Positions 1 through 63,780 are shown, numbered from the stretch's first letter. The stretch: 64,000 nucleotides of DNA from a phage (GCA_032430995.1 GCA_032430995.1_3952.1); one strand, 5' to 3'. Notes: generated by a model not told the origin, from the letters alone. Made by a program: numbers and translations.

Positions 1-146
1 AAACTATCATGACTCACTCAGCAGGTGAGATGAAAGCCATTGCAGCAGACACTAAGAAGACTCCTGATAACGGTGGTCAGTCTCAGACAGATAACAAACC
101 AACGTTCTCTGCTGTAGCGACTCTTAAAAAATAATTTTAAAAGATG

Positions 147-176
147 TTGACAGACTCTACAAAGTTGCTCTAAAGT
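147..176 (+). promoter_or_regulatory. sigma70-like promoter (TTGACA-N18-TAAAGT) upstream of first CDS
   Basis: TTGACA at 147-152, TAAAGT at 171-176; purine-rich RBS and ATG at 216 follow. Confidence 0.45.
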
Positions 177-215
177 CTGTCACATCAAACAACAAATGAG
201 AGAAGAGAGTAAAAT

Positions 216-1631
216 ATGAGCGAATTATTTAAACATGCGCACCTTCATGCAGGTCGAACTGAAAATGGTGCTGTAAACCATACTTCATCAATGTCTGCTC
301 TTGTAGACTTTTACAAAGCTGCTGGTTCAAGCCGTAGCAACGTAGAAATCTTACCAGACCTGTTCTACAAAGCTTTGCGTGAGGATGTTGATGTTGCAGT
401 TCGTATTTTGCTTCATATGCGAGATGTACGAGAAGGTATGGGTGAGCGTAAAGCCTTCAGAACTGTTTTGCTTCAAGCAATTGAAGATAAAGTTTTAGAG
501 CCTACACAGGTTCTTCGCATTATGGATAAGATTGCAGAACTTGGTCGTTTTGATGACTTCAAAATCTTCGTGGGTACTTGTTTCGAGACAGATGCCTTCA
601 AACATTTAGAAGCAGCATTACTAGACCCTGCAACAGCAGGTTTGGCGGCTAAGTGGTTACCACGAGTCAAACCACGTCATAAGCAGTTTGTAAAACGTTT
701 CTGCAAGTTTGCCAACTTGAGTGAGAAAGAGTACCGCACACTGTTGTCTGCACTATCTGATACAGTTGAGCAAAAAATCTCTGCTAATGAGTTTGGTAAG
801 ATTGACTACAGTAAGATTCCTTCACTTGCTGCTGCACGTTACCAAAAACTGTTTAACCGTAAAGATGGAGAGCGTTACAAAGCTTACATCGAGTCCTTAT
901 CAAAAGGTGAGACTAAGATTAGCGCTGGTGCTGTTTACCCATACGATGTGATTAAATCTGTCAAGCATGGTAATGCAGATGTTGCTAATGAGCAGTGGAA
1001 AGCACTACCAAACTGGATGGCAGAAGGTGAAAACATCTTGTGTATGTCTGATGTATCAAGTTCAATGTCTTGGGTGAATTTTGGCTCCATTACTGCTCTG
1101 GATATTGGTGTATCACTTGCCTTGTATGTAGCAGAACGCAATACAGGTTGCTTTAAGAATGAGTTGATGGTTTATTCAACAAACCCTCACTTCATCGAAC
1201 TGAGTGGTGATTTACGAAACCGTCATCGTCAGGTGATGCGACACGTTGAATATGGCTCAACTAACTTACAAGCAGCTTTTGACCGCATTCTTGAGACAGG
1301 CAAAAGAAACAACTTGACTCAGAAAGATATGCCAAGTAAGCTTATCATCTTCTCCGATATGGAGTTTAATCAGGTTGATGGGGCTAACGGTCGTACAAAC
1401 TTTGAAGCAATTCAGAGTAAGTACAAAAAAGCTGGATATGAGATGCCACAACTGGTATTCTGGTACTTAGCAAACCGTAATGGTACTTGCGAAGTATCTG
1501 TTAAGGATAACGGTGTAGCAATGGTATCAGGGTTCTCTCCAGCCACTTTAAAAGCTCTGCTTGGTGGTGAGAAGTTTGACCCAATCAGTGTAATGCTCAA
1601 AGCAGTAATGATTGACCGTTATATCTGGTAA
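216..1631 (+). CDS. von Willebrand factor A (vWA) domain protein, DUF2828/TROVE-like
   Basis: 471 aa ORF with RBS; MIDAS-like DxSxS motif (DVSSSMS) and a second vWA-like block (LIIFSDMEF) in the C-terminal half; family name recalled from memory, not searched. Confidence 0.5.
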   Translation: MSELFKHAHLHAGRTENGAVNHTSSMSALVDFYKAAGSSRSNVEILPDLFYKALREDVDVAVRILLHMRDVREGMGERKAFRTVLLQAIEDKVLEPTQVLRIMDKIAELGRFDDFKIFVGTCFETDAFKHLEAALLDPATAGLAAKWLPRVKPRHKQFVKRFCKFANLSEKEYRTLLSALSDTVEQKISANEFGKIDYSKIPSLAAARYQKLFNRKDGERYKAYIESLSKGETKISAGAVYPYDVIKSVKHGNADVANEQWKALPNWMAEGENILCMSDVSSSMSWVNFGSITALDIGVSLALYVAERNTGCFKNELMVYSTNPHFIELSGDLRNRHRQVMRHVEYGSTNLQAAFDRILETGKRNNLTQKDMPSKLIIFSDMEFNQVDGANGRTNFEAIQSKYKKAGYEMPQLVFWYLANRNGTCEVSVKDNGVAMVSGFSPATLKALLGGEKFDPISVMLKAVMIDRYIW

Positions 1632-1649
1632 AAAGTTTTAAAAAGGGTA

Positions 1650-1678
1650 TTGACAATGTGTTTAATACCCTTTAATAT
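1650..1678 (+). promoter_or_regulatory. sigma70-like promoter (TTGACA-N17-TAATAT) at head of tRNA array
   Basis: consensus -35 and near-consensus -10 with 17 nt spacer; embedded in inverted repeat AAGGGTAT...ATACCCTT. Confidence 0.5.
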
Positions 1679-1739
1679 GTTCTACATAGAAACGAAATGA
1701 GAGCTTTTCTAAGATACTGAAAAATATTTTAAAAAGTTC

Positions 1740-1769
1740 TTGACAACCACTAAAAAATAATGTTAAAGT
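1740..1769 (+). promoter_or_regulatory. sigma70-like promoter (TTGACA-N18-TAAAGT)
   Basis: same architecture as the promoter at 147-176; immediately upstream of first tRNA. Confidence 0.45.
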
Positions 1770-1795
1770 GGTTACATAGAGTTTGAAAAGTTTAT

Positions 1796-1872
1796 CTCTG
1801 TTTAGCTCAGCTTGGTAGAGCGTTCCGTTTGGGGCGGTAAGGCCGGAGGTTCAAGTCCTCCAACAGAGACCA
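1796..1872 (+). tRNA. tRNA-Pro (anticodon UGG)
   Basis: hand-folded cloverleaf: 7 bp acceptor stem, GGTTCAAGTCC T-arm, anticodon loop TTTGGGG, encoded CCA. Confidence 0.65.
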
Positions 1873-1879
1873 AATTAAT

Positions 1880-1957
1880 GTTCCAGTGGACAAAATGGTA
1901 AAGTCACCACTCTTTCAAAGTGGATATTTGAGGGTTCAAATCCCTTCTGGAACGCCA
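1880..1957 (+). tRNA. tRNA-Glu (anticodon UUC)
   Basis: acceptor GTTCCAG/CTGGAAC, anticodon stem CCACT/AGTGG with loop CTTTCAA, T-arm GGGTTCAAATCCC, CCA. Confidence 0.6.
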
Positions 1958-2047
1958 GTTTTGACAGAAGACCAATTACAGCAAACTTAATCTACTCATC
2001 TGAAAGTTAATCGGACAAAGAAGATATTTGGTCTGGTCATTAAGAAT

Positions 2048-2124
2048 TGCGGGTATAGAGAAAGGGCGTCTCACATGTCTCATTAGCATGGTATCGGCAG
2101 GTTCGACTCCTGCACCCGCCTCCA
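2048..2124 (+). tRNA. tRNA-Met/fMet/Ile2 (anticodon CAU)
   Basis: T-arm GCAGG-TTCGACT-CCTGC, anticodon stem CATGT/GCATG loop CTCATTA, CCA; first acceptor pair mismatched. Confidence 0.5.
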
Positions 2125-2207
2125 AATTTACAGAAGACCGTTTACAGCAATATTTATTAAATTTTTAGCGGAAAAATTGAAAGATACGGTCTGGTAATAC
2201 TAAACAT

Positions 2208-2284
2208 GGTTAGGAAGCACATAAGGTATGTGCGGTCGCCTGTTAAGCGAATGGCACAGGGTTCGAATCCCTGACTAACCGCCA
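2208..2284 (+). tRNA. tRNA-Asn (anticodon GUU)
   Basis: anticodon loop CTGTTAA, T-arm CAGGG-TTCGAAT-CCCTG, CCA. Confidence 0.6.
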
Positions 2285-2353
2285 AATTTAGGAGAGAAGC
2301 GATTGCTCACCGATTTGTAAGGTGCAAGTCCTTAGCCTGAATAGAAATCAAAT

Positions 2354-2441
2354 GTGTCGTTATCCCGTAGATGGTAGCGGTGGGGACTGTAAATCCCTTG
2401 TCATTGAGACTCGGTAGGTTCGACTCCTACACGGCACACCA
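2354..2441 (+). tRNA. tRNA-Tyr (anticodon GUA), long variable arm
   Basis: 88 nt; acceptor GTGTCGT/ACGGCAC, anticodon loop CTGTAAA, long variable arm, T-arm GGTTCGACTCC, CCA. Confidence 0.65.
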
Positions 2442-2447
2442 AATAAA

Positions 2448-2525
2448 GGTTATGTAGTTTAATCTGGTTAAAATACTCCCCTGTCACGGGAGATGATGAG
2501 GGTTCAAATCCCTTCGTAACCGCCA
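2448..2525 (+). tRNA. tRNA-Asp (anticodon GUC)
   Basis: anticodon stem CTCCC/GGGAG loop CTGTCAC, T-arm GGGTTCAAATCCC, CCA. Confidence 0.65.
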
Positions 2526-2708
2526 ATTTTGAGAGGGCTATTTAGCCCCTCCCTTAAAGGGTTCTTACGAGTATTCTTTAAAGGAGCAGAAGACCAAATA
2601 CAGCAAGTTATTTAAAATTTCAAGCCAATTTAATTTTGAAAAATTTAAAACTTGGTCTGGCTCAACAAATTTACAGAAGACCGTTTACAGCAAAACTTAA
2701 ACAATCTA

Positions 2709-2782
2709 TTTCTCCGGTAAAGAAAAGGCGAAGGTTCGATTCCTTCACTCGGCAGATGTCGAGTTGGTGTAATGGTAGCACT
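2709..2782 (+). other. tRNA-like element with permuted half order (3' half upstream of 5' half); possible permuted or pseudo tRNA
   Basis: 2709-2754 folds as anticodon-arm-like hairpin (TTTCT-CCGGTAA-AGAAA), T-arm GAAGG-TTCGATT-CCTTC and 3' acceptor strand ACTCGGC; 3 nt later 2758-2781 gives matching 5' acceptor strand GTCGAGT plus a D-arm; no normal upstream 5' half found. Confidence 0.25.
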
Positions 2783-2807
2783 TAAGATGATAAACAACGG
2801 TCTGGTA

Positions 2808-2950
2808 ATTATCTTTGTAGATAAGTTATTAAGCTTACCTGTGAGTATGCGACCACAAAGGGTGAAAGGGTAAATTCTAGATTTAAACCCAAAAAGGCAC
2901 ATCGCTACAGACCTTAAGCAAGTCTGGGTAGCTTATCTACAAAGATAATT
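2808..2950. repeat. perfect 19 bp inverted repeat (AATTATCTTTGTAGATAAG / CTTATCTACAAAGATAATT) flanking a 105 bp spacer
   Basis: arms at 2808-2826 and 2932-2950 are exact reverse complements; lies between the tRNA-like element and tRNA-Lys. Confidence 0.7.
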
Positions 2951-2954
2951 TAAT

Positions 2955-3030
2955 GGAAGTGTAGCAGAATGGTGATGCGGCAGACTTTTAATCTGACAGG
3001 CGATGGGTTCGAATCCCTCCACTTCTACCA
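2955..3030 (+). tRNA. tRNA-Lys (anticodon UUU, tentative)
   Basis: acceptor GGAAGTG/CACTTCT, T-loop GGGTTCGAATCCC, anticodon loop CTTTTAA, CCA; anticodon and T stems imperfect. Confidence 0.5.
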
Positions 3031-3108
3031 AATTCACCCTTAACTGAGAAACACCTGCGCGGCTGGAAACACCCACTCAACAGTTTCTCTAACTAGGGTA
3101 CTTATTCT

Positions 3109-3185
3109 GGTTCAGTCGCAGATAAGGTAATGCAAGGGTCTCATAAGCCCTATGAATGTGGGTTCGATTCCCATCTGAACCTCCA
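3109..3185 (+). tRNA. tRNA-Met (anticodon CAU)
   Basis: anticodon stem AGGGT/GCCCT loop CTCATAA, T-arm GGGTTCGATTCCC, CCA. Confidence 0.65.
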
Positions 3186-3186
3186 A

Positions 3187-3262
3187 GCTGGTATAGTTAA
3201 GAAGGTTATAACACTCCCCTGATAAGGGAACATCGGTGGTTCGATTCCACCTACCAGTACCA
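3187..3262 (+). tRNA. tRNA-Ile (anticodon GAU)
   Basis: anticodon loop CTGATAA, T-arm GGTGG-TTCGATT-CCACC, CCA. Confidence 0.65.
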
Positions 3263-3277
3263 ATTTCAATAAAGTTG

Positions 3278-3306
3278 TTGACATTGAGATGTGACTACTT
3301 TATAGT
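3278..3306 (+). promoter_or_regulatory. sigma70-like promoter (TTGACA-N17-TATAGT) internal to tRNA array
   Basis: consensus -35, 17 nt spacer, TATAGT -10. Confidence 0.5.
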
Positions 3307-3508
3307 AACCTTAGTTTTCGTTGCGTAGCGTCTATTTTGCAAATTTAAAATAAATGCAAACGACAATGTTTTTCTGGCAGTAGCTTGATAGGCTAAACAC
3401 CAGTGAGGTCTTCCAATCCCTCATCAAAGAATTTGGCGTACTCGCCCACGGTATGATTAATAAGGTGGGCATCTTTAAGGGCTTTCTAAGAGAGTCTTTA
3501 AAGATAAT

Positions 3509-3585
3509 GCACCCTTAGTTCAATTGGATAGAGCAACGGTCTTCTAAATCGTTAGTTACAGGTTCGAATCCTGTAGGGTGTACCA
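3509..3585 (+). tRNA. tRNA-Arg (anticodon UCU)
   Basis: acceptor GCACCCT/AGGGTGT, anticodon stem ACGGT/ATCGT loop CTTCTAA, T-arm CAGG-TTCGAAT-CCTG, CCA. Confidence 0.65.
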
Positions 3586-3727
3586 AATAGTTAGCAGATT
3601 ACTTAGACGGCCTTAGCGGGTCTTCCTGTAGGGAGGTGGTCTGTATCTCATGTTTTCCAGAACATGTAAATAATCTGAGAAGGAGCTTGACAGTGTTGAG
3701 ATAACAGGGTAAGCTTCGAATTATAAT

Positions 3728-3810
3728 ATGGGACGATGTTAAGACTCTAAGGCATGAGCAACGGCCTCCAAAACCGTTTCAAAGGGGTTCAACTCCTCCG
3801 TCCCATGCCA
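3728..3810 (+). tRNA. tRNA, anticodon uncertain (possibly Trp CCA; enlarged anticodon loop)
   Basis: perfect acceptor ATGGGAC/GTCCCAT, T-loop TTCAACT, CCA; anticodon stem AACGG/CCGTT closes a 9 nt loop CCTCCAAAA. Confidence 0.4.
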
Positions 3811-3823
3811 AAGTCTTATTAGG

Positions 3824-3911
3824 GGTAGGTAGCGGCTAATGGTAGCCAAACTGTCTTGAAAACAGTTGCCACTGTAGAGATACGGTGAGGGTTCGACTCC
3901 TTTACTTACCG
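3824..3911 (+). tRNA. tRNA-Ser (anticodon UGA), long variable arm
   Basis: 88 nt; acceptor GGTAGGT/ACTTACC, anticodon stem ACTGT/ACAGT loop CTTGAAA, long variable arm, T-arm GAGGG-TTCGACT-CCTTT. Confidence 0.65.
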
Positions 3912-4061
3912 CCTAATAAGATTTACTCCGTCCATGCTTGTTCGCATTGTCGGTTTATCCCTCGTGTATTGTCGTACACTGTCAAAGCACCTAGTAGGTG
4001 TCACGGAGAAGAGATAATATCAAGCTCTCCAAAGGTTCTAGTCACCGGATTAAACAAGACT

Positions 4062-4086
4062 ATGCAAAGACCTATTTAGGTCTTTT
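4062..4086 (+). terminator. intrinsic-terminator-like hairpin inside tRNA array
   Basis: AAGACC-TATTTA-GGTCTT stem-loop followed by a T run. Confidence 0.4.
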
Positions 4087-4167
4087 TAGAGGGCTTCTAA
4101 GGTTATTAGTCGCTTGTTGTGGAACCTTGTTGCTTAGGTTCTTAGAAGTTCTCTAAAAAGATTTAAT

Positions 4168-4245
4168 GGGAGATTGACGGTAATTGGTAAACCTACCATC
4201 CTTAGAAGTTGGTGTTTGAGGGTTCGAATCCCTTGTCTCCTACCA
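4168..4245 (+). tRNA. tRNA, anticodon apparently UAG (Leu-type) but short variable arm
   Basis: acceptor GGGAGAT/GTCTCCT, T-arm GAGGG-TTCGAAT-CCCTT, CCA; anticodon loop CTTAGAA; class I length. Confidence 0.4.
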
Positions 4246-4252
4246 AATTAAT

Positions 4253-4328
4253 GCAGGTGTAGCAAAATGGTTATGCGGCTGACTCTTAATCAGTAAGACG
4301 ATGGGTTCAATTCCCTCCACCTGTACCA
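4253..4328 (+). tRNA. tRNA-Lys (anticodon CUU)
   Basis: anticodon stem GCTGA/TCAGT loop CTCTTAA, T-loop GGGTTCAATTCCC, CCA. Confidence 0.55.
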
Positions 4329-4334
4329 AACATT

Positions 4335-4410
4335 GGGGATGTAGTTTACATGGTTAAAACATAAGTTTTGCAAACTTAAGTACAGGGTTCAATTCCCTGC
4401 TTCTCCACCA
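4335..4410 (+). tRNA. tRNA-Ala (anticodon UGC)
   Basis: anticodon stem TAAGT/ACTTA loop TTTGCAA, T-arm CAGGG-TTCAATT-CCCTG, CCA. Confidence 0.6.
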
Positions 4411-4416
4411 ATTAGT

Positions 4417-4491
4417 GCATCCATAGTTTAAACGGGAAAATTACAGTCTTCCAAACTGAGGTTGAGGGTTCGATTCCCTCTGGATGCTCCA
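4417..4491 (+). tRNA. tRNA-Gly (anticodon UCC)
   Basis: acceptor GCATCCA/TGGATGC, anticodon loop CTTCCAA, T-arm GAGGG-TTCGATT-CCCTC, CCA. Confidence 0.6.
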
Positions 4492-4497
4492 AACAAT

Positions 4498-4574
4498 GCT
4501 GCTTTCGTATAATTGGCTATTACACATCCCTTGTAAGGATGGAAATGCAGGTTCGAGTCCTGTGAGCAGCACCA
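4498..4574 (+). tRNA. tRNA-Thr (anticodon UGU)
   Basis: anticodon stem CATCC/GGATG loop CTTGTAA, T-arm GCAGG-TTCGAGT-CCTGT, CCA. Confidence 0.65.
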
Positions 4575-4670
4575 ATTCAGAGGTCAAGTGAAAGACCGCT
4601 TTGAGTCAACTGAAGACCGTAACAAATACCACGGAGTTGAGTTAGCGGCACAACTTCAGACCTCTTTCAT

Positions 4671-4745
4671 ACTCGCTTAGTTTATATGGTAAAACATCAC
4701 CCTTACAAGATGAAGAAAAAGGTTCAAGTCCTTTAGTGAGTACCA
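4671..4745 (+). tRNA. tRNA-Val (anticodon UAC)
   Basis: acceptor ACTCGCT/AGTGAGT, D-stem GTTT/AAAC, anticodon loop CTTACAA, T-arm AAAGG-TTCAAGT-CCTTT, CCA. Confidence 0.6.
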
Positions 4746-4746
4746 T

Positions 4747-4824
4747 GTTCCAGTATCCCAATTGGCAGAGGATGCAAGCTCAAACCTTGTATTAGTGACG
4801 GTTCGAATCCGTCTTGGAACACCA
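4747..4824 (+). tRNA. tRNA with Leu-type anticodon CAA, class I length
   Basis: acceptor GTTCCAG/TTGGAAC, anticodon stem GCAAG/CTTGT loop CTCAAAC, T-arm GACGG-TTCGAAT-CCGTC, CCA; no long variable arm. Confidence 0.5.
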
Positions 4825-4829
4825 ATTTT

Positions 4830-4905
4830 GCAGGATTAGTTCAAATGGAAAGAGCAACAGTCTACGAAGCTGTTAATAGGGGTTCGAATCCCTTATCCTG
4901 CGCCA
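4830..4905 (+). tRNA. tRNA-Arg (anticodon ACG)
   Basis: perfect acceptor GCAGGAT/ATCCTGC, anticodon loop CTACGAA, T-arm GGGGTTCGAATCCC, CCA. Confidence 0.7.
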
Positions 4906-4922
4906 GATAAAAAGGTGATACT

Positions 4923-5165
4923 ATGCAAACATTAACAGTAGTTGAACATGAAAACTGTGAGAGTATTGAGTTTGTCAGGGTCATTGGTGTTGAACACCAC
5001 ATTTTCTTAAAAGTGGGATACTTATGCGACCCCGCTAGAGTAGAAAGATTTATACGTGATTGTTTTGGTGGTAGACATCTGAAGAGTGTTATTTTTGAGA
5101 CAGTTTTACCAGAAGGTTTAGAAACGAATAATAACATTTACCTCCTTACGAGGATTAGACAATGA
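4923..5165 (+). CDS. hypothetical small protein inside tRNA array
   Basis: 80 aa ORF with AAGGTGA RBS 6 nt upstream of ATG; sits in a tRNA-free gap. Confidence 0.4.
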   Translation: MQTLTVVEHENCESIEFVRVIGVEHHIFLKVGYLCDPARVERFIRDCFGGRHLKSVIFETVLPEGLETNNNIYLLTRIRQ

Positions 5166-5719
5166 GATACTTAAAGTATGCTTCATGGATTTTCTTAGCT
5201 TTGTTAGAGCCATTTGCAGCAATCTTAGCAGTTATCTTAGCACCTTTTGTAGTTCCATTCTACAGTGAGAAGAAAGGACACTTACCTTTCGGGTTCAGAT
5301 GGATGGAGACATATGACAACCCAATTGATGGTGATGAAGGTCACGTTAAAAGATGGGCTAATATTAGATGGGTTGGTAAACTAGGTGTCTACATGCAAAG
5401 AGTCGGATGGCTCTGGAGAAACAAAGCTTATAACTTCTCTTACCATGTATTAGGAAGAGATGTAAGAGATGTTACTAAGTGGAAAGGTAATATCAACGTA
5501 AGTTCTAACCCTGAAGATAATCAGACTGGTTATCTCCTAATGTGGAACAGTAATGCTTGGGGATTATTCGCTTTTATCCCATCAATTAAAGTCTTCGGTA
5601 AACAGTTTTACTGGAGAATTTATGTTGGATGGAAACTTAAAAGTGTTGTCCCAGAAGAAAGAGCATTCTCAAGGGAAAGAGTTATGTTGGCATTCTTTAT
5701 TCATCCACTGAGAAAGTAA
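5162..5719 (+). CDS. hypothetical membrane protein
   Basis: 185 aa ORF overlapping upstream stop (ATGA); hydrophobic N-terminal segment; Trp/Tyr-rich. Confidence 0.5.
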   Translation: MRYLKYASWIFLALLEPFAAILAVILAPFVVPFYSEKKGHLPFGFRWMETYDNPIDGDEGHVKRWANIRWVGKLGVYMQRVGWLWRNKAYNFSYHVLGRDVRDVTKWKGNINVSSNPEDNQTGYLLMWNSNAWGLFAFIPSIKVFGKQFYWRIYVGWKLKSVVPEERAFSRERVMLAFFIHPLRK

Positions 5720-5727
5720 AGATTTAA

Positions 5728-5803
5728 AGGGGATTAGTTTACAAGGTTAAAACCTCGGTCTTTGAAATCGAAGAAGTTGGTTCAATTCCAACATCCCCCG
5801 CCA
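5728..5803 (+). tRNA. tRNA-Gln (anticodon UUG)
   Basis: D-stem GTTT/AAAC, anticodon stem TCGGT/ATCGA loop CTTTGAA, T-arm GTTGG-TTCAATT-CCAAC, CCA. Confidence 0.6.
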
Positions 5804-5805
5804 AT

Positions 5806-5884
5806 GCTCCATTACTCCAATTGGCAGAGAGGCCAGACTTAAAATCTGTGTTATGTATCGGTTCGAATCCGATATGGAGTACCA
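5806..5884 (+). tRNA. tRNA with Leu-type anticodon UAA, class I length
   Basis: acceptor GCTCCAT/ATGGAGT, anticodon loop CTTAAAA, T-arm ATCGG-TTCGAAT-CCGAT, CCA. Confidence 0.5.
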
Positions 5885-5889
5885 AATTT

Positions 5890-5965
5890 AGCGGTATAGC
5901 ATAACTGGCAATGCAGCAGTCTCTGAAGCTGTCCTATTAAGGTTCAAATCCTTATGCCGCTGCCA
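5890..5965 (+). tRNA. tRNA-Gln (anticodon CUG)
   Basis: D-stem GCAT/ATGC, anticodon stem GCAGT/GCTGT loop CTCTGAA, T-arm TAAGG-TTCAAAT-CCTTA, CCA. Confidence 0.55.
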
Positions 5966-5996
5966 CTTCTAAGGATTCTTACGAGAGTCCTTAAAT

Positions 5997-6072
5997 GTGG
6001 CCTTATCATAAATGGTAATGACCCATGCTGTGAACATGGTCTATACGGGTTCAAATCCCGTAGGTCACCCCA
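5997..6072 (+). tRNA. tRNA-His (anticodon GUG)
   Basis: anticodon stem CCATG/CATGG loop CTGTGAA, T-arm CGGG-TTCAAAT-CCCG, CCA. Confidence 0.65.
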
Positions 6073-6077
6073 ATTTA

Positions 6078-6154
6078 TAGTCCAAGTAGCTTATATGGTT
6101 AAAGCGCGTGTCTGAAAAACATGAGAAGAGGGTTCAAATCCCACTGGACTACCA
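6078..6154 (+). tRNA. tRNA-Phe (anticodon GAA)
   Basis: acceptor TAGTCCA/TGGACTA, anticodon stem CGTGT/ACATG loop CTGAAAA, T-loop GGGTTCAAATCCC. Confidence 0.6.
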
Positions 6155-6170
6155 ATTTCAAAGGTGCTTA

Positions 6171-6905
6171 ATGAAAGAGATGACAGAACAAGGTAAGGAG
6201 ATTTTCAATCTCTTAAAAACCGGTAAAGGGTTTTCTAACCCCCTTATTACTGGTGCAGCAGTTCTCGGTGGAACCGTAGCTGCCTCTACATCACTTGTAA
6301 GCTCTATTAGCTCTGTATCAGACCCTACAGTAAAGGATAAGCTTGTTGCTGCTGGACTTACAACAGTTCTGCTTAACAGCTTTACCACGAGTCTGACAAG
6401 CACTACATCAACCACCAAAACACTAACAGATTACGGTCAAAAGTCCATTGATGAGTTTTCATCACGTATGCAGGTAGCAAAAGGTTACTCTAATGTTATG
6501 GGTGCAGCAGGTGAACAAGTTGGCTGTACACCATTTAGTGGTATTATGGGTGTTGCTACAGAGTATGGTCAAAAAGCTATTGATACGATTAACAGTGCAC
6601 TAGACGGTGTTAATGGTGTGTTAAGTGACTTACAAGACGCTATTGACAAAGGTCTTGATACTATTTCTGATTTAGCTAACCAAGCTGTTAGTAAGATTAA
6701 TGAAGGTATCTCAAAGATTACAGCTTATGCAGATGAAGTTGTGCAGATGATTGAAGAAGAAGCTGCTCTTATTGCAGAGTACCTTAAAACGAATATCAAT
6801 GGGTTCTTAGCAGGTATCTTACCAGACTGGTTTGATGATGCTTGTAAAACTGGTGTAATTGACACTATTGCAACACCAGAAATGAAGAGCGCATTACAGA
6901 AATAA
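6171..6905 (+). CDS. hypothetical protein (Ser/Thr-rich N-terminal half, predicted helical C-terminal half)
   Basis: ORF track frame 6108-6905 trimmed to ATG 6171 because 6078-6154 is tRNA-Phe; RBS AAAGG upstream. Confidence 0.5.
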   Translation: MKEMTEQGKEIFNLLKTGKGFSNPLITGAAVLGGTVAASTSLVSSISSVSDPTVKDKLVAAGLTTVLLNSFTTSLTSTTSTTKTLTDYGQKSIDEFSSRMQVAKGYSNVMGAAGEQVGCTPFSGIMGVATEYGQKAIDTINSALDGVNGVLSDLQDAIDKGLDTISDLANQAVSKINEGISKITAYADEVVQMIEEEAALIAEYLKTNINGFLAGILPDWFDDACKTGVIDTIATPEMKSALQK

Positions 6906-6906
6906 T

Positions 6907-6999
6907 GGAAGATTAACCCTAAAAGGTAAGGGAGCAGTTTGCTAAACTGCCAGTAGCTGAGAAATCGGTGTACCAGTTCAAGTCTGGTATCTTCCTCCA
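6907..6999 (+). tRNA. tRNA-Ser (anticodon GCU), long variable arm
   Basis: 93 nt; perfect acceptor GGAAGAT/ATCTTCC, anticodon stem GCAGT/ACTGC loop TTGCTAA, long variable arm, T-arm ACCAG-TTCAAGT-CTGGT, CCA. Confidence 0.7.
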
Positions 7000-7003
7000 A
7001 TTT

Positions 7004-16252: not shown

Positions 16253-17605
16253 ATGTGGAATCCAATTGTTAATGTAGATATTACATTGAACACCGCAGGA
16301 ACTACAAGAGAAGGTTTTGGGCTACCACTATTTTTAGCTTCAACAGATAACTTTGAAGAAAGAGTCCGTGGTTACACTTCCTTAACTGAAGTTGCTGAAG
16401 ATTTCGATGAAAACTCTGCTGCATATAAGGCTGCTAAACAACTTTGGAGTCAGACTCCTAAAGTAACTCAGCTTTATATTGGTAGACGTGCTATGCAGTA
16501 CACTGTATCAATTCCTGATGAGGTTACTGAGAGCACCGACTATTCTTTAACTGTAGCTGTGAGCGGTGGAGTTTCTCAGCCATTCCAGTACACTTCACAG
16601 TCAGAAGATACTGCTGAGAAGGTGCTACAGCAGCTTAAAACTCAGATTGAAGCAGAGCCTTCTGTAAAAGACCTTGTTACCGTCAATGTAACTGGTGCTG
16701 GTGGTTCAGCAACAATGGTAATCACCAAAGCGGGTGACAATGACTTCGTGAAGGTTACCACTACAGCACAAACAGTGTCAATTGCAAGTACAACTGCTGA
16801 CACAGCATCGACTGCTCTGGCAGCTATTGAGGCTTATTCAACTGACTGGTATTTCATTGCAGCAGAAGATAGAACTCAACAGTTTGTCTTAGCAATGGCT
16901 TCTGAGATTCAAGCTCGTAAGAAGATTTTCTTTACAGCTAACTCTGATGTAACAGCCCTACAAGGCACAGAATTAGCCAGTGCAAATGATGTTCCAGCAC
17001 AGCTTGTTAAGAGTCAGTACACTCGTACCGTTTGCTTGTGGCATCACACAGCAGCAGAAGACTATCCAGAAATGGCATACATTGCTTATGGCGCTCCGTA
17101 TGATGCAGGTTCAATTGCTTGGGGTAACGCACAGTTAACTGGCGTAGCTGCTTCTCTACAGCCATCTAATCAGAGACCTCTGACAAGTATTCAGAAGTCA
17201 GCTTTAGATGCACGTCACTGTAACTTTATTGACCTTGATGGTGGTGTTCCAGTGGTTCGTAGAGGGATTACTTCTGGTGGGGAATGGATTGATATCATCC
17301 GTGGTGTTGACTGGTTAGAATCAGACCTGAAAACTTCTCTGAGAGACTTGCTAATTAACCAGAAGGGTGGTAAGATTACTTATGATGATACTGGTATTAC
17401 CCGTATTCGTCAAGTCATTGAAACCTCTCTGCAAAGAGCAGTCAACAGAAACTTCCTGTCATCTTACACAGTTAATGTTCCTAAAGCCTCTCAAGTTGCT
17501 TTGGCAGACAAGAAAGCTCGTATCCTGAAAGACGTTACCTTCGCAGGTATCTTAGCAGGGGCTATCTTGGATGTTGACTTGAAAGGTACAGTGGCTTACG
17601 AATAA
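16253..17605 (+). CDS. major tail protein, sheath-like (putative tail sheath)
   Basis: 450 aa, followed by a 148 aa tube-sized gene, chaperone pair and tape measure: myovirus-type gene order. Confidence 0.5.
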   Translation: MWNPIVNVDITLNTAGTTREGFGLPLFLASTDNFEERVRGYTSLTEVAEDFDENSAAYKAAKQLWSQTPKVTQLYIGRRAMQYTVSIPDEVTESTDYSLTVAVSGGVSQPFQYTSQSEDTAEKVLQQLKTQIEAEPSVKDLVTVNVTGAGGSATMVITKAGDNDFVKVTTTAQTVSIASTTADTASTALAAIEAYSTDWYFIAAEDRTQQFVLAMASEIQARKKIFFTANSDVTALQGTELASANDVPAQLVKSQYTRTVCLWHHTAAEDYPEMAYIAYGAPYDAGSIAWGNAQLTGVAASLQPSNQRPLTSIQKSALDARHCNFIDLDGGVPVVRRGITSGGEWIDIIRGVDWLESDLKTSLRDLLINQKGGKITYDDTGITRIRQVIETSLQRAVNRNFLSSYTVNVPKASQVALADKKARILKDVTFAGILAGAILDVDLKGTVAYE

Positions 17606-34817: not shown

Positions 34818-35092
34818 TGGCAGATTTTTTATAAGGCTACTGCCATCCTTCCATACCTCACCACACAAGACCAGACCATGCCGTACTCCACATCACCGTA
34901 CATCACTTAAAAACCCTTTTCAAAGACTCTTAAGTGATGTAATCGAATTTTTATGTAGCTCCGATTAACTACCCATACCATACAAAGCCATACCCAACCA
35001 AACATTACCGCACCATACAGAACCGTACCTAACCTGACATAGCCGCACCTTACCTTGTTAAAAGACCCTCTTAAAAGACCTTTTAAAAAGGA
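34818..35092. repeat. G-poor composite repeat region, copy 1 (shares modules with 36226-36495)
   Basis: shared blocks: GGCAGATTTTT..GGCTACTGCCATCC..CCATACC; hairpin CATCACTTAAAAACCC...TTAAGTGATG; TGTAGCT..ACTACCCATACC; TTAAAAGACCCTCTTAAAAGACCTTTTAAAAAGG. Confidence 0.75.
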
Positions 35093-35118
35093 GCCTCCGA
35101 AGAGGCTGCCTAGTCAAC

Positions 35119-35559
35119 TTAGAAAGGTTTTCTGCGTTGCTTGTTAATGTTAGCTTTCATAGCAGCTAAGTGGTTTTGCTGTTCAATTAGTCGTGAACGT
35201 TCTTGGTGGCTAAGTGCCATAGTGTTCACATTCTCAATCGCTTGAGTAGCTTGCTTTAAAGCACGACCAATTTTACCAGACATTTTGCGTTTTGCAATAG
35301 TTGCTTGATGCTTAGGTTCAACCACACGATAACCAACACCCATTGAAGCAACCAGATAAATCTTCTCTTCTTTAAGAAGCTTCTCAATAAACTTCTCAAG
35401 TCGGTTTAGGCGTGTAAGTGCATAAGCCTTCATTTCATCTTCGTACTTAACAATGTCACCTTGATAAGTTGGCTTCACAATACCTAAGAAGGTATCCATC
35501 TCAGAATGTGATACAGTGTCACCGTAACTAAACTTTGCTGCTAATGCTTTTGTATTCAT
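35119..35559 (-). CDS. hypothetical basic protein (cassette gene 2)
   Basis: 146 aa, Lys/Arg-rich C-terminus. Confidence 0.5.
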   Translation of the reverse strand: MNTKALAAKFSYGDTVSHSEMDTFLGIVKPTYQGDIVKYEDEMKAYALTRLNRLEKFIEKLLKEEKIYLVASMGVGYRVVEPKHQATIAKRKMSGKIGRALKQATQAIENVNTMALSHQERSRLIEQQNHLAAMKANINKQRRKPF

Positions 35560-35561
35560 AA

Positions 35562-36167
<606 letters not shown>

Positions 36168-36225
36168 TTAGTTGATTGTTAAGTTGTTTGTAAAGAACCC
36201 TCAACAGAGGACTCTTTAGAAACTT

Positions 36226-36495
36226 GGTAGATTTTTAACGTGGCTACTACCATCCACCCATACCGCGACACACCGAACCAGACCTTACACCACCTTACAC
36301 CACCCCACCTCATTAAAAGACCCTCTTAAAAGGCCTTTTAAAAAGGTAAGTCTCATTTTAATGTAGCTGAGACTAACTACCCATACCTCACATCACCGCA
36401 CCATACTACACCTGACACCACCTTACACCACCGCACCATACCTGACCGAGCTACACATCACTTAAAAACCCTCTTAGAAAGACTCTTAAGTGATG
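36226..36495. repeat. G-poor composite repeat region, copy 2
   Basis: same modules as copy 1 but in permuted order; plus strand nearly devoid of G over about 250 bp. Confidence 0.75.
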
Positions 36496-36710
36496 CTGGT
36501 GAGTACCTGTTGGTTTATGCTGCTCAGTATACTCACCAAATTTTCTATGTCAACAGCTTTTTATATAAAAGTCCTGATAGCTATATGTGTCACGAAACAA
36601 AAGATTGTAAACAAGACACCCATTGCAAAAGATGTGTCCAAAAGCTTACTTGCAACGTATGACAATACAAAGACAACCAGTATAAACAGAATGACTGTAC
36701 TGAACATAGT

Positions 36711-63743: not shown

Positions 63744-63756
63744 AAGTATATGATAA

Positions 63757-63780
63757 AAGGCTCCTACGGGAGCCTTTTTA
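63757..63780 (+). terminator. intrinsic terminator
   Basis: GGCTCC-TACG-GGAGCC hairpin followed by TTTTT. Confidence 0.65.

Follow-up and report, generated by a model that had tools for sequence, protein, structure and literature searches.

A repeated RNA stem-loop family in tRNA and non-coding RNA transcripts of a Felixounavirus

Virulent phages often carry large tRNA clusters, which are now viewed as counter-measures to host defences that target tRNAs. To our knowledge, the processing and stability of multi-kilobase, untranslated, multi-RNA phage transcripts are largely unstudied outside T4. The window analysed here, a 64,000-nt stretch of phage DNA, is the tRNA region of a Felixounavirus (97% identity to Escherichia phage Ro111lw), a member of the Felix O1 group, which is widely used in Salmonella and E. 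coli typing and biocontrol. Short hairpins recur among its tRNA genes: what are they, and what might they do? A preliminary description had placed three copies near 2553-2584, 3473-3503 and 5966-5996, and hairpins are indeed present there. The exact 10-mer TTCTTACGAG occurs three times in the window against 0.07 expected, a count that none of 100 shuffles reached. Its third match (16914-16923, minus strand) folds no better than shuffles (z -0.5) and is probably unrelated to the hairpins. We conclude that the repeated motif is a genuine RNA stem-loop family within phage tRNA and non-coding RNA transcripts. It is an element of a fairly ordinary kind, although we found no description of it in databases or the literature.

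Copy 1 (2549-2586, plus strand; CUCCCUUAAAGGGUUCUUACGAGUAUUCUUUAAAGGAG) forms 15 pairs, four of them in the lower stem CUCC/GGAG, under a UACG loop (fold z -2.2). It is a seed member of R2, our covariance model of the family, and scores 44.5 bits. Directly 5' of it, the fold of 2526-2590 contains a small G+C-rich hairpin (2535-2548, plus strand; GGGCUAUUUAGCCC) that is also kept in relatives. Copy 2 (3471-3505, plus strand; AUCUUUAAGGGCUUUCUAAGAGAGUCUUUAAAGAU) forms 16 continuous pairs, three of them G·U, below a UAA loop. Its fold reaches -17.6 kcal/mol (z -4.48), against just -6.3 for the antisense strand, and R2 detects it at E 1.4e-3 despite its being outside the seed. Copy 3 (5970-5993, plus strand; 52 bits with R2) has a 10-bp stem and a UACG loop (fold z -3.4); in one variant, L031, the stem is lengthened to 18 bp. 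Helix length ranges from 10 continuous pairs in copy 3 to 15-16 pairs in copies 1 and 2 and 16-21 in the minus-strand members described below. With a G+C content of 33-42%, the stems are built predominantly of A-U and G·U pairs.

TTCTTACGAG had been taken for the loop. In the MFE fold it is instead the top 3-4 bp of a single 10-16 bp stem together with a UACG tetraloop: TTCT and AGAG pair (U-A, C-G, U-A, U·G) around the tetraloop, and the corresponding apex of copy 2 is CUUUC/GAGAG around a UAA triloop. Nor did the proposed degenerate copy at 4090-4160 hold up. What lies there is a separate 91-nt hairpin (4076-4166, plus strand; -38.4 kcal/mol, z -5.05) that R2 does not detect. Its lower stem has 26 bp, six of them G·U, and it ends 1 nt before tRNA-Leu(tag). 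It occurs as two alleles in relatives, with the basal arms kept, and an Rfam MIR473 match spans it (4072-4172, E 0.0036).

Several lines of evidence place the family at the RNA level. Across nine hairpins the sense strand contains 33 G·U pairs and the antisense strand three, and the sense fold is the more stable in all nine, by more than 5 kcal/mol in five. When 12 sequences were aligned, 93% of cells paired and two-sided changes were seen at 7 of the 12 pairs; none of 500 shuffles equalled these values, and slid controls paired at no more than 62%. Every stem substitution observed among orthologues preserves pairing. One pair of copy 1 alternates between G·U, G-C and A-U; the changes in copy 2 are C-G to U·G and G·U to G-C, and those in copy 3 are A-U to G·U and U·G to U-A. 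Identity to Mooglevirus and Suspvirus is 95.6% in the hairpins, 91-94% in tRNAs, 85-88% in other spacers and 79-86% in coding sequence.

R2 also found up to five further members on the minus strand between 34.9 and 36.5 kb. The best (35053-35091, E 3.2e-3) has 17 pairs, four of them G·U, and folds at -11.2 kcal/mol in the sense orientation versus -6.0 in the antisense; the minus strand is the coding strand here, and a canonical UUCG terminator (35107-35092) immediately precedes this hairpin. The next (36304-36350, E 0.011) has 21 pairs with six G·U and shows a larger difference between strands (-23.3 versus -10.5 kcal/mol). The member at 36455-36496 (E 0.076) follows a sigma-70-like promoter (36553-36526) at a distance of about 30 nt, and Ro111lw has its orthologue behind the same promoter; a second sigma-70-like promoter of this region is found at 34799-34771. 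The two remaining matches lie at 34899-34941 (E 0.078; 20 pairs, four G·U) and, as a weaker, possible member, at 36185-36224 (E 0.17; -16.3 kcal/mol). A two-gene cassette at 35119-36164 is bordered by four repeat units of about 150 nt, each containing a hairpin of the family. In many Felixounaviruses the match covers no more than about a fifth of this region, and in Ro111lw, the one relative checked, the cassette is absent and a single repeat unit stands in its place.

The hairpins had been described as lying 3' of tRNA genes. This is true of copy 1, which begins 23 nt past tRNA-Asp, with the 2535-2548 hairpin between them, and abuts a structured RNA starting at 2585. Copies 2 and 3, on the other hand, lie 3 nt 5' of a tRNA. 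Copy 2 closes the 3' end of a tmRNA-like RNA upstream of tRNA-Arg(tct), and copy 3, upstream of tRNA-His, fills the 31-nt spacer between tRNA-Gln(ctg) and tRNA-His (5966-5996). Among the Ounavirinae loci examined, those with a Gln(ctg)-His junction have a spacer of 31 nt; the table of relatives lists 34. Each cluster copy is flush with the 5' end of the next RNA, be it tRNA-Arg, tRNA-His or a Y-RNA-like element. The distance from hairpin base to tRNA 5' end is 1-3 nt for copies 2 and 3, for the 4076-4166 hairpin and for the copy in Erwinia phages, which is flush against tRNA-Leu. Copy 2 is also the break-point of two spacer alleles: in relatives with the other Ile-Arg allele, its site holds a different hairpin with similar arms.

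Absence from related phages had been named as grounds for discarding the motif, and the family proved to be present throughout Felixounavirus, Mooglevirus, Suspvirus and Kolesnikvirus, the last infecting Erwinia, as well as in other phage families. Members also occur in Kuravirus, Grimontviridae, T5-like Epseptimavirus and two unassigned viral contigs, and a search with the lower stem only found a variant with the apex UUCU-GUU-AGAA in the N4-like Gamaleyavirus. Most cross-family copies came from an exact 14-mer scan and from BLAST seeded on the apex, and this ascertainment bias explains much of the seeming invariance of the apex between families. In Kuravirus NJ01, Gamaleyavirus ECBP1 and Grimontviridae PKM.Hi.22.6 the hairpin begins just past a stop codon. 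In Gamaleyavirus no such hairpin is present at the 3' end of the tmRNA-like RNA, and the hairpin is therefore not obligatory for this RNA.

How might these hairpins act? The reading we prefer, with a probability of roughly 0.45, is that they are punctuation stem-loops that define and stabilise RNA ends and also serve as PeSL-like recombination linkers. The family comprises sense-strand stem-loops of 10-20 bp, rich in A/U and G·U, capped by UACG or UAA and not followed by a U-tract, and these would punctuate phage transcripts that are long and for the most part untranslated. The short single-stranded linkers flanking a hairpin would be cut by RNase P and RNase E, so that the upstream product would end in a stable helix with just 1-3 nt beyond it. 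Such an end could not be engaged by PNPase, RNase II or RNase R, and the neighbouring RNA would therefore be protected; at copy 2 this would be the tmRNA-like RNA, itself without a terminator. Structure, strand, conservation, positions and distribution of the hairpins are observed, whereas we infer both the enzymes and the stabilising effect. RNase E cutting next to tRNAs requires an adjacent structured unit, for which a simple stem-loop suffices (PMC9841416), and the helix may double as this element. Because the copies are alike in sequence, they could in their second role provide homologous linkers where gene and RNA modules are swapped, much as PeSL cassettes of T4-type phages do. Besides the missing hairpin of the Gamaleyavirus tmRNA-like RNA, two considerations weigh against end protection: at copy 3, a stable hairpin in the tRNA-Gln 3' trailer should hinder rather than help exonucleolytic 3' maturation, and pure end protection needs no strong conservation of the apex sequence.

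It is improbable that the hairpins are intrinsic terminators or attenuators that lower read-through between modules, although the orthologue of copy 3 is annotated as a terminator in the Citrobacter phage Michonne record (KT001916.1), PeSL stem-loops terminate efficiently (PMC2839356), and in Yersinia phage P778 a related hairpin, AGAAUCCUUUUACGAGGGUUCU, is followed by UUUUUU directly after tRNA-Asp. In the window, all three copies lack a U-tract 3' of the stem (the flanks are AGCAGAAG, AAUGCACC and AAUGUGGC), terminator scans do not list the hairpins, and their stems are A/U- and G·U-rich rather than G+C-rich. The tRNAs continue on the same strand past the hairpins, which thus do not end the transcription unit. 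Promoters of the cluster lie at 1650, 1740 and 3278, and its one clear terminator at 7242-7259; no strong (at least 10/12) plus-strand promoter-like site was found between 3278 and 7161, so that the tRNAs beyond copy 3 have none before 7161. The earlier view that these are not plain terminators is borne out by the missing U-tracts and by downstream tRNAs without a promoter of their own. At 35053-35091, directly after a canonical terminator, a second one would be redundant. We consider it just as improbable that the element works only as DNA, as a palindromic protein-binding site or a recombination linker such as a selfish repeat. Arms of the CTTTAAAG type are both near-palindromes and direct repeats, copies sit at the edges of variable segments, and the minus-strand copies lie inside ACC-rich repeat units that could be iterons. 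However, the 33 sense-strand G·U pairs are A×C mismatches on the other strand, the substitutions observed are exactly those that preserve RNA pairing on the transcribed strand, and all copies lie on the same strand as the surrounding genes. An Rfam scan of 1-8000 (E ≤ 1) returned no meaningful match at the three copies, only a miRNA-model match over copy 3 on the opposite strand (E 0.17), and no hairpin comes within two mismatches of the boxA consensus GCUCUUUAACAA, to which the window has 17 similar matches versus 10.9 ± 3.3 expected.

Host RNase III might instead cut the helix and free the flanking RNAs, as at T7 early-mRNA sites and rRNA precursor stems, and RNase III does take part in processing the T4 tRNA cluster. 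Pair counts are high (15-16 for copies 1 and 2, 17-21 for four of the five minus-strand members and 26 for the long hairpin), and the helices are regular, contain G·U pairs and lie between cistrons or at ncRNA boundaries. In several copies one mismatch interrupts the helix about 10-11 bp from the loop, a layout that recalls the lower stem, internal loop and 10-bp upper stem of T7 sites. On the other hand, R1, a covariance model that we trained on seven RNase III sites of T7, fails to pick up the hairpins (best, copy 2, at 11.2 bits and E about 8; other copies unlisted), and the 10 continuous pairs of copy 3 fall below typical substrate length. As RNase III has no strong consensus, neither point is decisive, and we regard this explanation as unlikely. 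Recognition of the apex by a host or phage protein or RNase, reading the UUCU/AGAG helix with its U·G pair and the UACG loop, seems doubtful to us; the hairpin would in that case be an operator, a processing signal or a decoy. In its favour, the same 12-14 nt apex tops differing lower stems and flanks with compensatory changes, the pairs directly beneath it vary (GGA/UCC, GGG/CCC or GAG/UUC), and it recurs, U·G included, in Ounavirinae, Kolesnikvirus, Kuravirus, Grimontviridae, Epseptimavirus and the two unassigned contigs. The sole loop change seen, UACG to UGCG in L102, is still UNCG, and the hairpins are more strongly conserved than the tRNAs. Against it stand the bias of apex-based searching, the different apex of the Gamaleyavirus hairpin found by its lower stem, and deviating apices in copy 1 (AGUA), copy 2 (CUUUC-UAA-GAGAG) and the minus-strand members. 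We found no protein common to all carrier phages, the DUF2828 gene adjacent to the cluster has no counterpart beside the phiEa21-4 tRNA cluster, and searches of E. coli genomes and of 185,579 species genomes gave no bacterial counterpart of the hairpin. The preliminary description was right about a strand-specific, conserved RNA stem-loop; its argument from a conserved loop on a variable stem to recognition does not carry over, as the decamer is mostly helix and the apex varies. With an apex that partly varies and an apparent invariance that owes much to the search, a sequence-specific reader is thus possible at best. That the hairpin is a sequence-specific, horizontally mobile RNA module of at least five virulent phage families, with an apex that engages one common host factor, is quite unlikely. 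If it were, the carriers would be phages of Enterobacteriaceae and Erwinia sharing the UUCU/AGAG helix, U·G pair and UACG loop, the hairpin might, as a decoy or sponge, titrate a host ribonuclease or RNA-sensing defence protein, and the 31-nt Gln-His spacer would be set free as a mini-RNA.

The family offers concrete, testable candidate processing sites for phages of the Felix O1 group. That several unrelated coliphage families share it, and that it lies at the borders of swapped modules, is also relevant to the movement of non-coding modules between phages.

Among the closest known systems are the promoter-early stem-loops (PeSLs) of T4-type phages (PMC2839356, PMC4122927). Both are short, repeated, intergenic stem-loops of virulent coliphages, the minus-strand copies adjoin sigma-70-like promoters, and the arrangement at 34.7-36.7 kb, with repeat units around variable genes and a lone unit in the relative without the cassette, is the pattern reported for PeSLs (PMC2839356). 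However, PeSL stems carry polyG/polyC tracts and terminate, whereas the hairpins here are A/U- and G·U-rich without a U-tract. The three tRNA-cluster copies have no attached promoter (copies 1 and 3 lack one, and the 3278-3306 promoter is about 165 nt upstream of copy 2) and are flush against tRNAs, and the present family is common to unrelated phage families. The T7 RNase III signals (R0.3 to R18.5) are likewise intercistronic hairpins of phage transcripts without a U-tract, with an upper stem of about 10 bp that starts AAGG...CCUU and a small loop. Unlike most copies here, they carry a 4x5 internal loop and a 9-bp lower stem, and the model built from them does not recognise our hairpins. The intercistronic C(UUCG)G hairpins of phage T4, stable structures reportedly described by Tuerk et al. 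in 1988, probably affect RNA stability or processing, as we propose for the present family. They share with it a UNCG-type tetraloop repeated between genes of a virulent coliphage, but here the loop is closed by U-A rather than C-G, some members have UAA or GUU triloops, and the stems are much longer. Finally, the elements that assist RNase E (PMC9841416) also combine a stem-loop with a short single-stranded linker beside a tRNA, the arrangement that activates the enzyme; that study, however, concerned host tRNA operons and a terminator hairpin.

The stretch from 1700 to 7200 is 97% identical to Escherichia phage vB_EcoM-Ro111lw and has matches in 350 phage records, mainly from Felixounavirus and other Ounavirinae. 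ARAGORN places 26 tRNA genes at 1796-7079, every one on the plus strand. Sigma-70-like promoters are present at 1650, 1740 and 3278; together with a clear intrinsic terminator at 7242-7259, they place the hairpins considered here within a single long, mostly untranslated transcription unit. Three plus-strand hairpins are indeed present where the preliminary description had placed them. In copy 1 (2549-2586), 15 pairs are interrupted by two single mismatches, and copy 2 (3471-3505) has 16 continuous pairs (-17.6 kcal/mol, z -4.5) under a UAA triloop. The stem of copy 3 (5970-5993, in the Gln-His spacer 5966-5996), UAAGGAUUCU/AGAGUCCUUA, is 10 bp long without a mismatch and carries a UACG tetraloop. 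From these minimum-energy folds, what had been taken for a conserved loop is the top of a helix plus a four-base loop. The window contains three exact copies of TTCTTACGAG, where 0.07 would be expected; the third match (16914, minus strand) folds no better than shuffles, and we regard it as unrelated to the hairpins. What had been described as a degenerate copy is a hairpin of its own, 91 nt long (4076-4166, z -5.05), which R2, our covariance model of the family, does not detect. A position 3' of tRNA genes holds for copy 1, which follows a tRNA with a small G+C-rich hairpin in between, but copies 2 and 3 end 3 nt before tRNA-Arg(tct) and tRNA-His, respectively.

On the tRNA strand, the hairpins form RNA structures that are under selection. 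Across nine hairpins, 33 G·U pairs fall on the strand of the surrounding genes versus 3 on the opposite strand, and the sense fold is the stabler one in all nine, by more than 5 kcal/mol in five. In about 35 Ounavirinae loci, every stem substitution preserves pairing: one pair of copy 1 is G·U, G-C or A-U depending on the locus, copy 2 varies from C-G to U·G and from G·U to G-C, and copy 3 from A-U to G·U and from U·G to U-A; in one genome copy 3 is lengthened to a perfect 18-bp stem. In a cross-family alignment of 12 sequences, several of them picked because they fold, 93% of cells are paired and both sides have changed in 7 of the 12 pairs, values reached by none of 500 shuffles; slid controls gave at most 62% paired. 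Identity to Mooglevirus and Suspvirus is 95.6% for the hairpins, 91-94% for the tRNAs and 85-88% for other spacers.

With copy 2 and all minus-strand sequences left out of its seed, R2 recovered copy 2 (E 1.4e-3) and five minus-strand hairpins at 34.9-36.5 kb (E 3e-3 to 0.17), in each case on the coding strand; it had no match in T7. Beyond the Ounavirinae (Felixounavirus, Mooglevirus, Suspvirus), apex-based searches found the apex UUCUUACGAGAG on differing lower stems. In Erwinia Kolesnikvirus the stem closes 1 nt, and its core helix 9 nt, upstream of tRNA-Leu, in Kuravirus NJ01 and relatives the hairpin is directly 3' of a stop codon, in Grimontviridae phage PKM.Hi.22.6 two genes flank it and GGG/CCC replaces GGA/UCC, and in the T5-like Epseptimavirus S126 it is in the tRNA region; two unassigned viral contigs also carry it. 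The motif is matched in none of 5,426 E. coli genomes and twice among 185,579 species genomes of bacteria and archaea, roughly the estimated chance level, and on these searches a host counterpart or prophage origin is rejected. Hitch-hiking with homing endonucleases is likewise rejected, as the ORFs flanking the hairpin in S126, PKM.Hi.22.6, NJ01 and ECBP1 do not encode them.

TCCTTACGAG (5143-5152, +) lies in a small hairpin where ORFs 4923-5165 and 5162-5719 overlap, immediately 5' of the second start codon; it and a hairpin of Yersinia phage P778 share UUACGAG in a different pairing register and were excluded as members. AAAAGGCTCCTACGGGAGCCTTTT (63755-63778) is a symmetric, terminator-like hairpin, likewise with a UACG loop (R2 E 0.03). 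Past the hairpin, Kuravirus (NJ01, locus L148, 2845-3090) and N4-like Gamaleyavirus (ECBP1, locus L167, 2524-2950) have non-coding stretches in common, among them GGCTTCAGATC..TATCAAACTAAC and TTAGRTCTTACATGCAA...GGGAGGAYTCGTCCCCTCCC. The hairpin's 3' arm, GAUAGG, can in either phage alternatively pair with a downstream CCUAUC, which could make a two-state structure.

The hairpins match no Rfam family, and no boxA (NusB-NusE antitermination) site was found. A sarcin-ricin-loop mimic, suggested by the common 8-mer UACGAGAG, is rejected on sequence and fold: a GAGA-loop fold implies a 6-nt bulge, the bulged-G motif is missing, and copies 1 and 2 diverge precisely at these bases. By inspection, mismatches in the alternative registers dispose of an anticodon-arm or T-arm mimic. 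Structure, strand, positions and distribution are observed; which enzymes act on the hairpins, and the effect on RNA stability, we infer. The best-supported reading, to which we give a probability of about 0.45, is a punctuation stem-loop. Cuts by RNase P at the 5' end of the tRNA and by RNase E in the short A/U linkers would leave the upstream RNA with a stable helix at its end and a tail of 1-3 nt. PNPase, RNase II and RNase R are not known to engage a helix with so short a tail. Beside tRNAs, RNase E depends on a structured element next to its site (PMC9841416), which the helix might also provide, and the repeated sequence would in addition act as a recombination linker. Copy 3 is awkward for the punctuation model, because a hairpin in the tRNA-Gln trailer should hinder 3' trimming.

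Alternatively, a sequence-specific factor might read the apex, which recurs on differing lower stems; a search with the NJ01 lower stem alone returned the same hairpin in N4-like Gamaleyavirus phages with the apex UUCU-GUU-AGAA, so the apex is not invariant, and we consider this reading unlikely. Cleavage by RNase III is another reading, and one that we consider somewhat more doubtful still. R1, a model built from seven T7 RNase III sites, gave no significant match at any hairpin in the window, so by that model they are not T7-type sites. CUAAGAGAGGACUUUAAG is absent from the T7 R1.1 sequence. One GenBank record annotates the hairpin as a terminator. The preliminary description had argued against a plain terminator, and rightly: the A/U-rich stems are not followed by a U-tract, and tRNAs lacking a promoter lie downstream. 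Attenuation of transcription is improbable, and we rate equally low a role at the DNA level only, against which the strand bias of the G·U pairs speaks.

Each long spacer of the tRNA cluster is a self-contained folded module with a closing terminal stem, and the hairpins are the smallest of these closed modules. Spacers 2812-2954, 3031-3108 and 4575-4670 (+) form strongly stable folds with long closing stems (z -5.0, -4.3 and -4.0), match nothing in Rfam and are near-identical in related phages, the 3031-3108 type also in Yersinia phage P778; they are candidate novel ncRNAs. In Citrobacter phage Maleficent (locus L005, 2890-3365) an HNH endonuclease gene is inserted directly 3' of the long hairpin (compare 4160-4180 in the window), and TTTAAT has been duplicated along with the initial 11 nt of tRNA-Leu(tag) (GGGAGATTGAC), a duplication that resembles a homing footprint. 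Further relatives have insertions in different spacers, for example Gly-Thr in Ro111lw.

Copy 2 and its Erwinia ortholog each close the 3' end of a conserved, tmRNA-like RNA of about 160 nt (3278-3470, +; also related loci L007 5860-6020 and L167 3125-3295); where relatives carry the alternative Ile-Arg spacer allele, its place is taken by another hairpin whose arms are similar. This RNA has a near-consensus promoter (TTGACA-17-TATAGT, 3278-3306). Its tag frame, GCA AAC GAC ..., reads ANDNVFLAVA and two stop codons; with synonymous and conservative changes, the frame persists in Erwinia Kolesnikvirus (ANDAQFLAVA) and in N4-like Gamaleyavirus (ANDDVVLMAA or ANEEAYLMVA). The stops lie inside a hairpin; this hairpin, the pseudoknot-like stem that comes next and a 3' hairpin all covary. 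ARAGORN calls no tmRNA, Rfam tmRNA matches are sub-threshold only, and no tRNA-like acceptor domain was identified.

Directly upstream of the cluster, gene 216-1631 (+) encodes a 471-aa DUF2828 and DUF7788 protein, annotated 'RNA-binding protein' in Sf13 and Moogle, with a von Willebrand factor type A domain added in the Mordin record. Four plus-strand spacer elements (about 1962-2039, 2128-2197, 2585-2662 and 2671-2808) have a common closing stem, 5' (U)ACA-GAA-GACCNNU ... ANNGGUC-U-GGUA 3', and within the fourth lie a T-arm, an acceptor-like stem and a D-arm-like hairpin. YrlA-type bacterial Y RNAs are similar; these reportedly bind Ro60-like proteins. There is no match to an Rfam Y RNA, nor by sequence to a solved structure.

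The minus-strand hairpins are parts of four repeat units of about 150 nt (34854-36495), in each of which a family hairpin accompanies an ACC-rich stretch (GGU-rich on the coding strand). The units flank a two-gene cassette of unknown function (35119-36164) beside the DNA ligase gene, and some GenBank records mark a 'repeat_region' there. In many Felixounaviruses, no more than about a fifth of this region is matched; Ro111lw, the sole relative checked, lacks the cassette and has one unit behind the same promoter. Promoter-early stem-loop (PeSL) cassettes of T4-type phages are described as having this pattern (PMC2839356), and the units could be a PeSL-like cassette, a small RNA set or iterons.

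The family is in neither Rfam nor the searchable literature, and its motif sequence is in no paper; the Felix O1 genome paper mentions no hairpins or stem-loops, and our literature search found no Felixounavirus transcriptome. As a kind of element, intercistronic stem-loops are known from phage transcripts, and what is modestly interesting here is the cross-family spread and the placement flush against tRNAs. Compared with the hairpin itself, two features nearby look more unusual: the RNA with the tmRNA-like tag and, beside the DUF2828 gene, the Y-RNA-like repeats.
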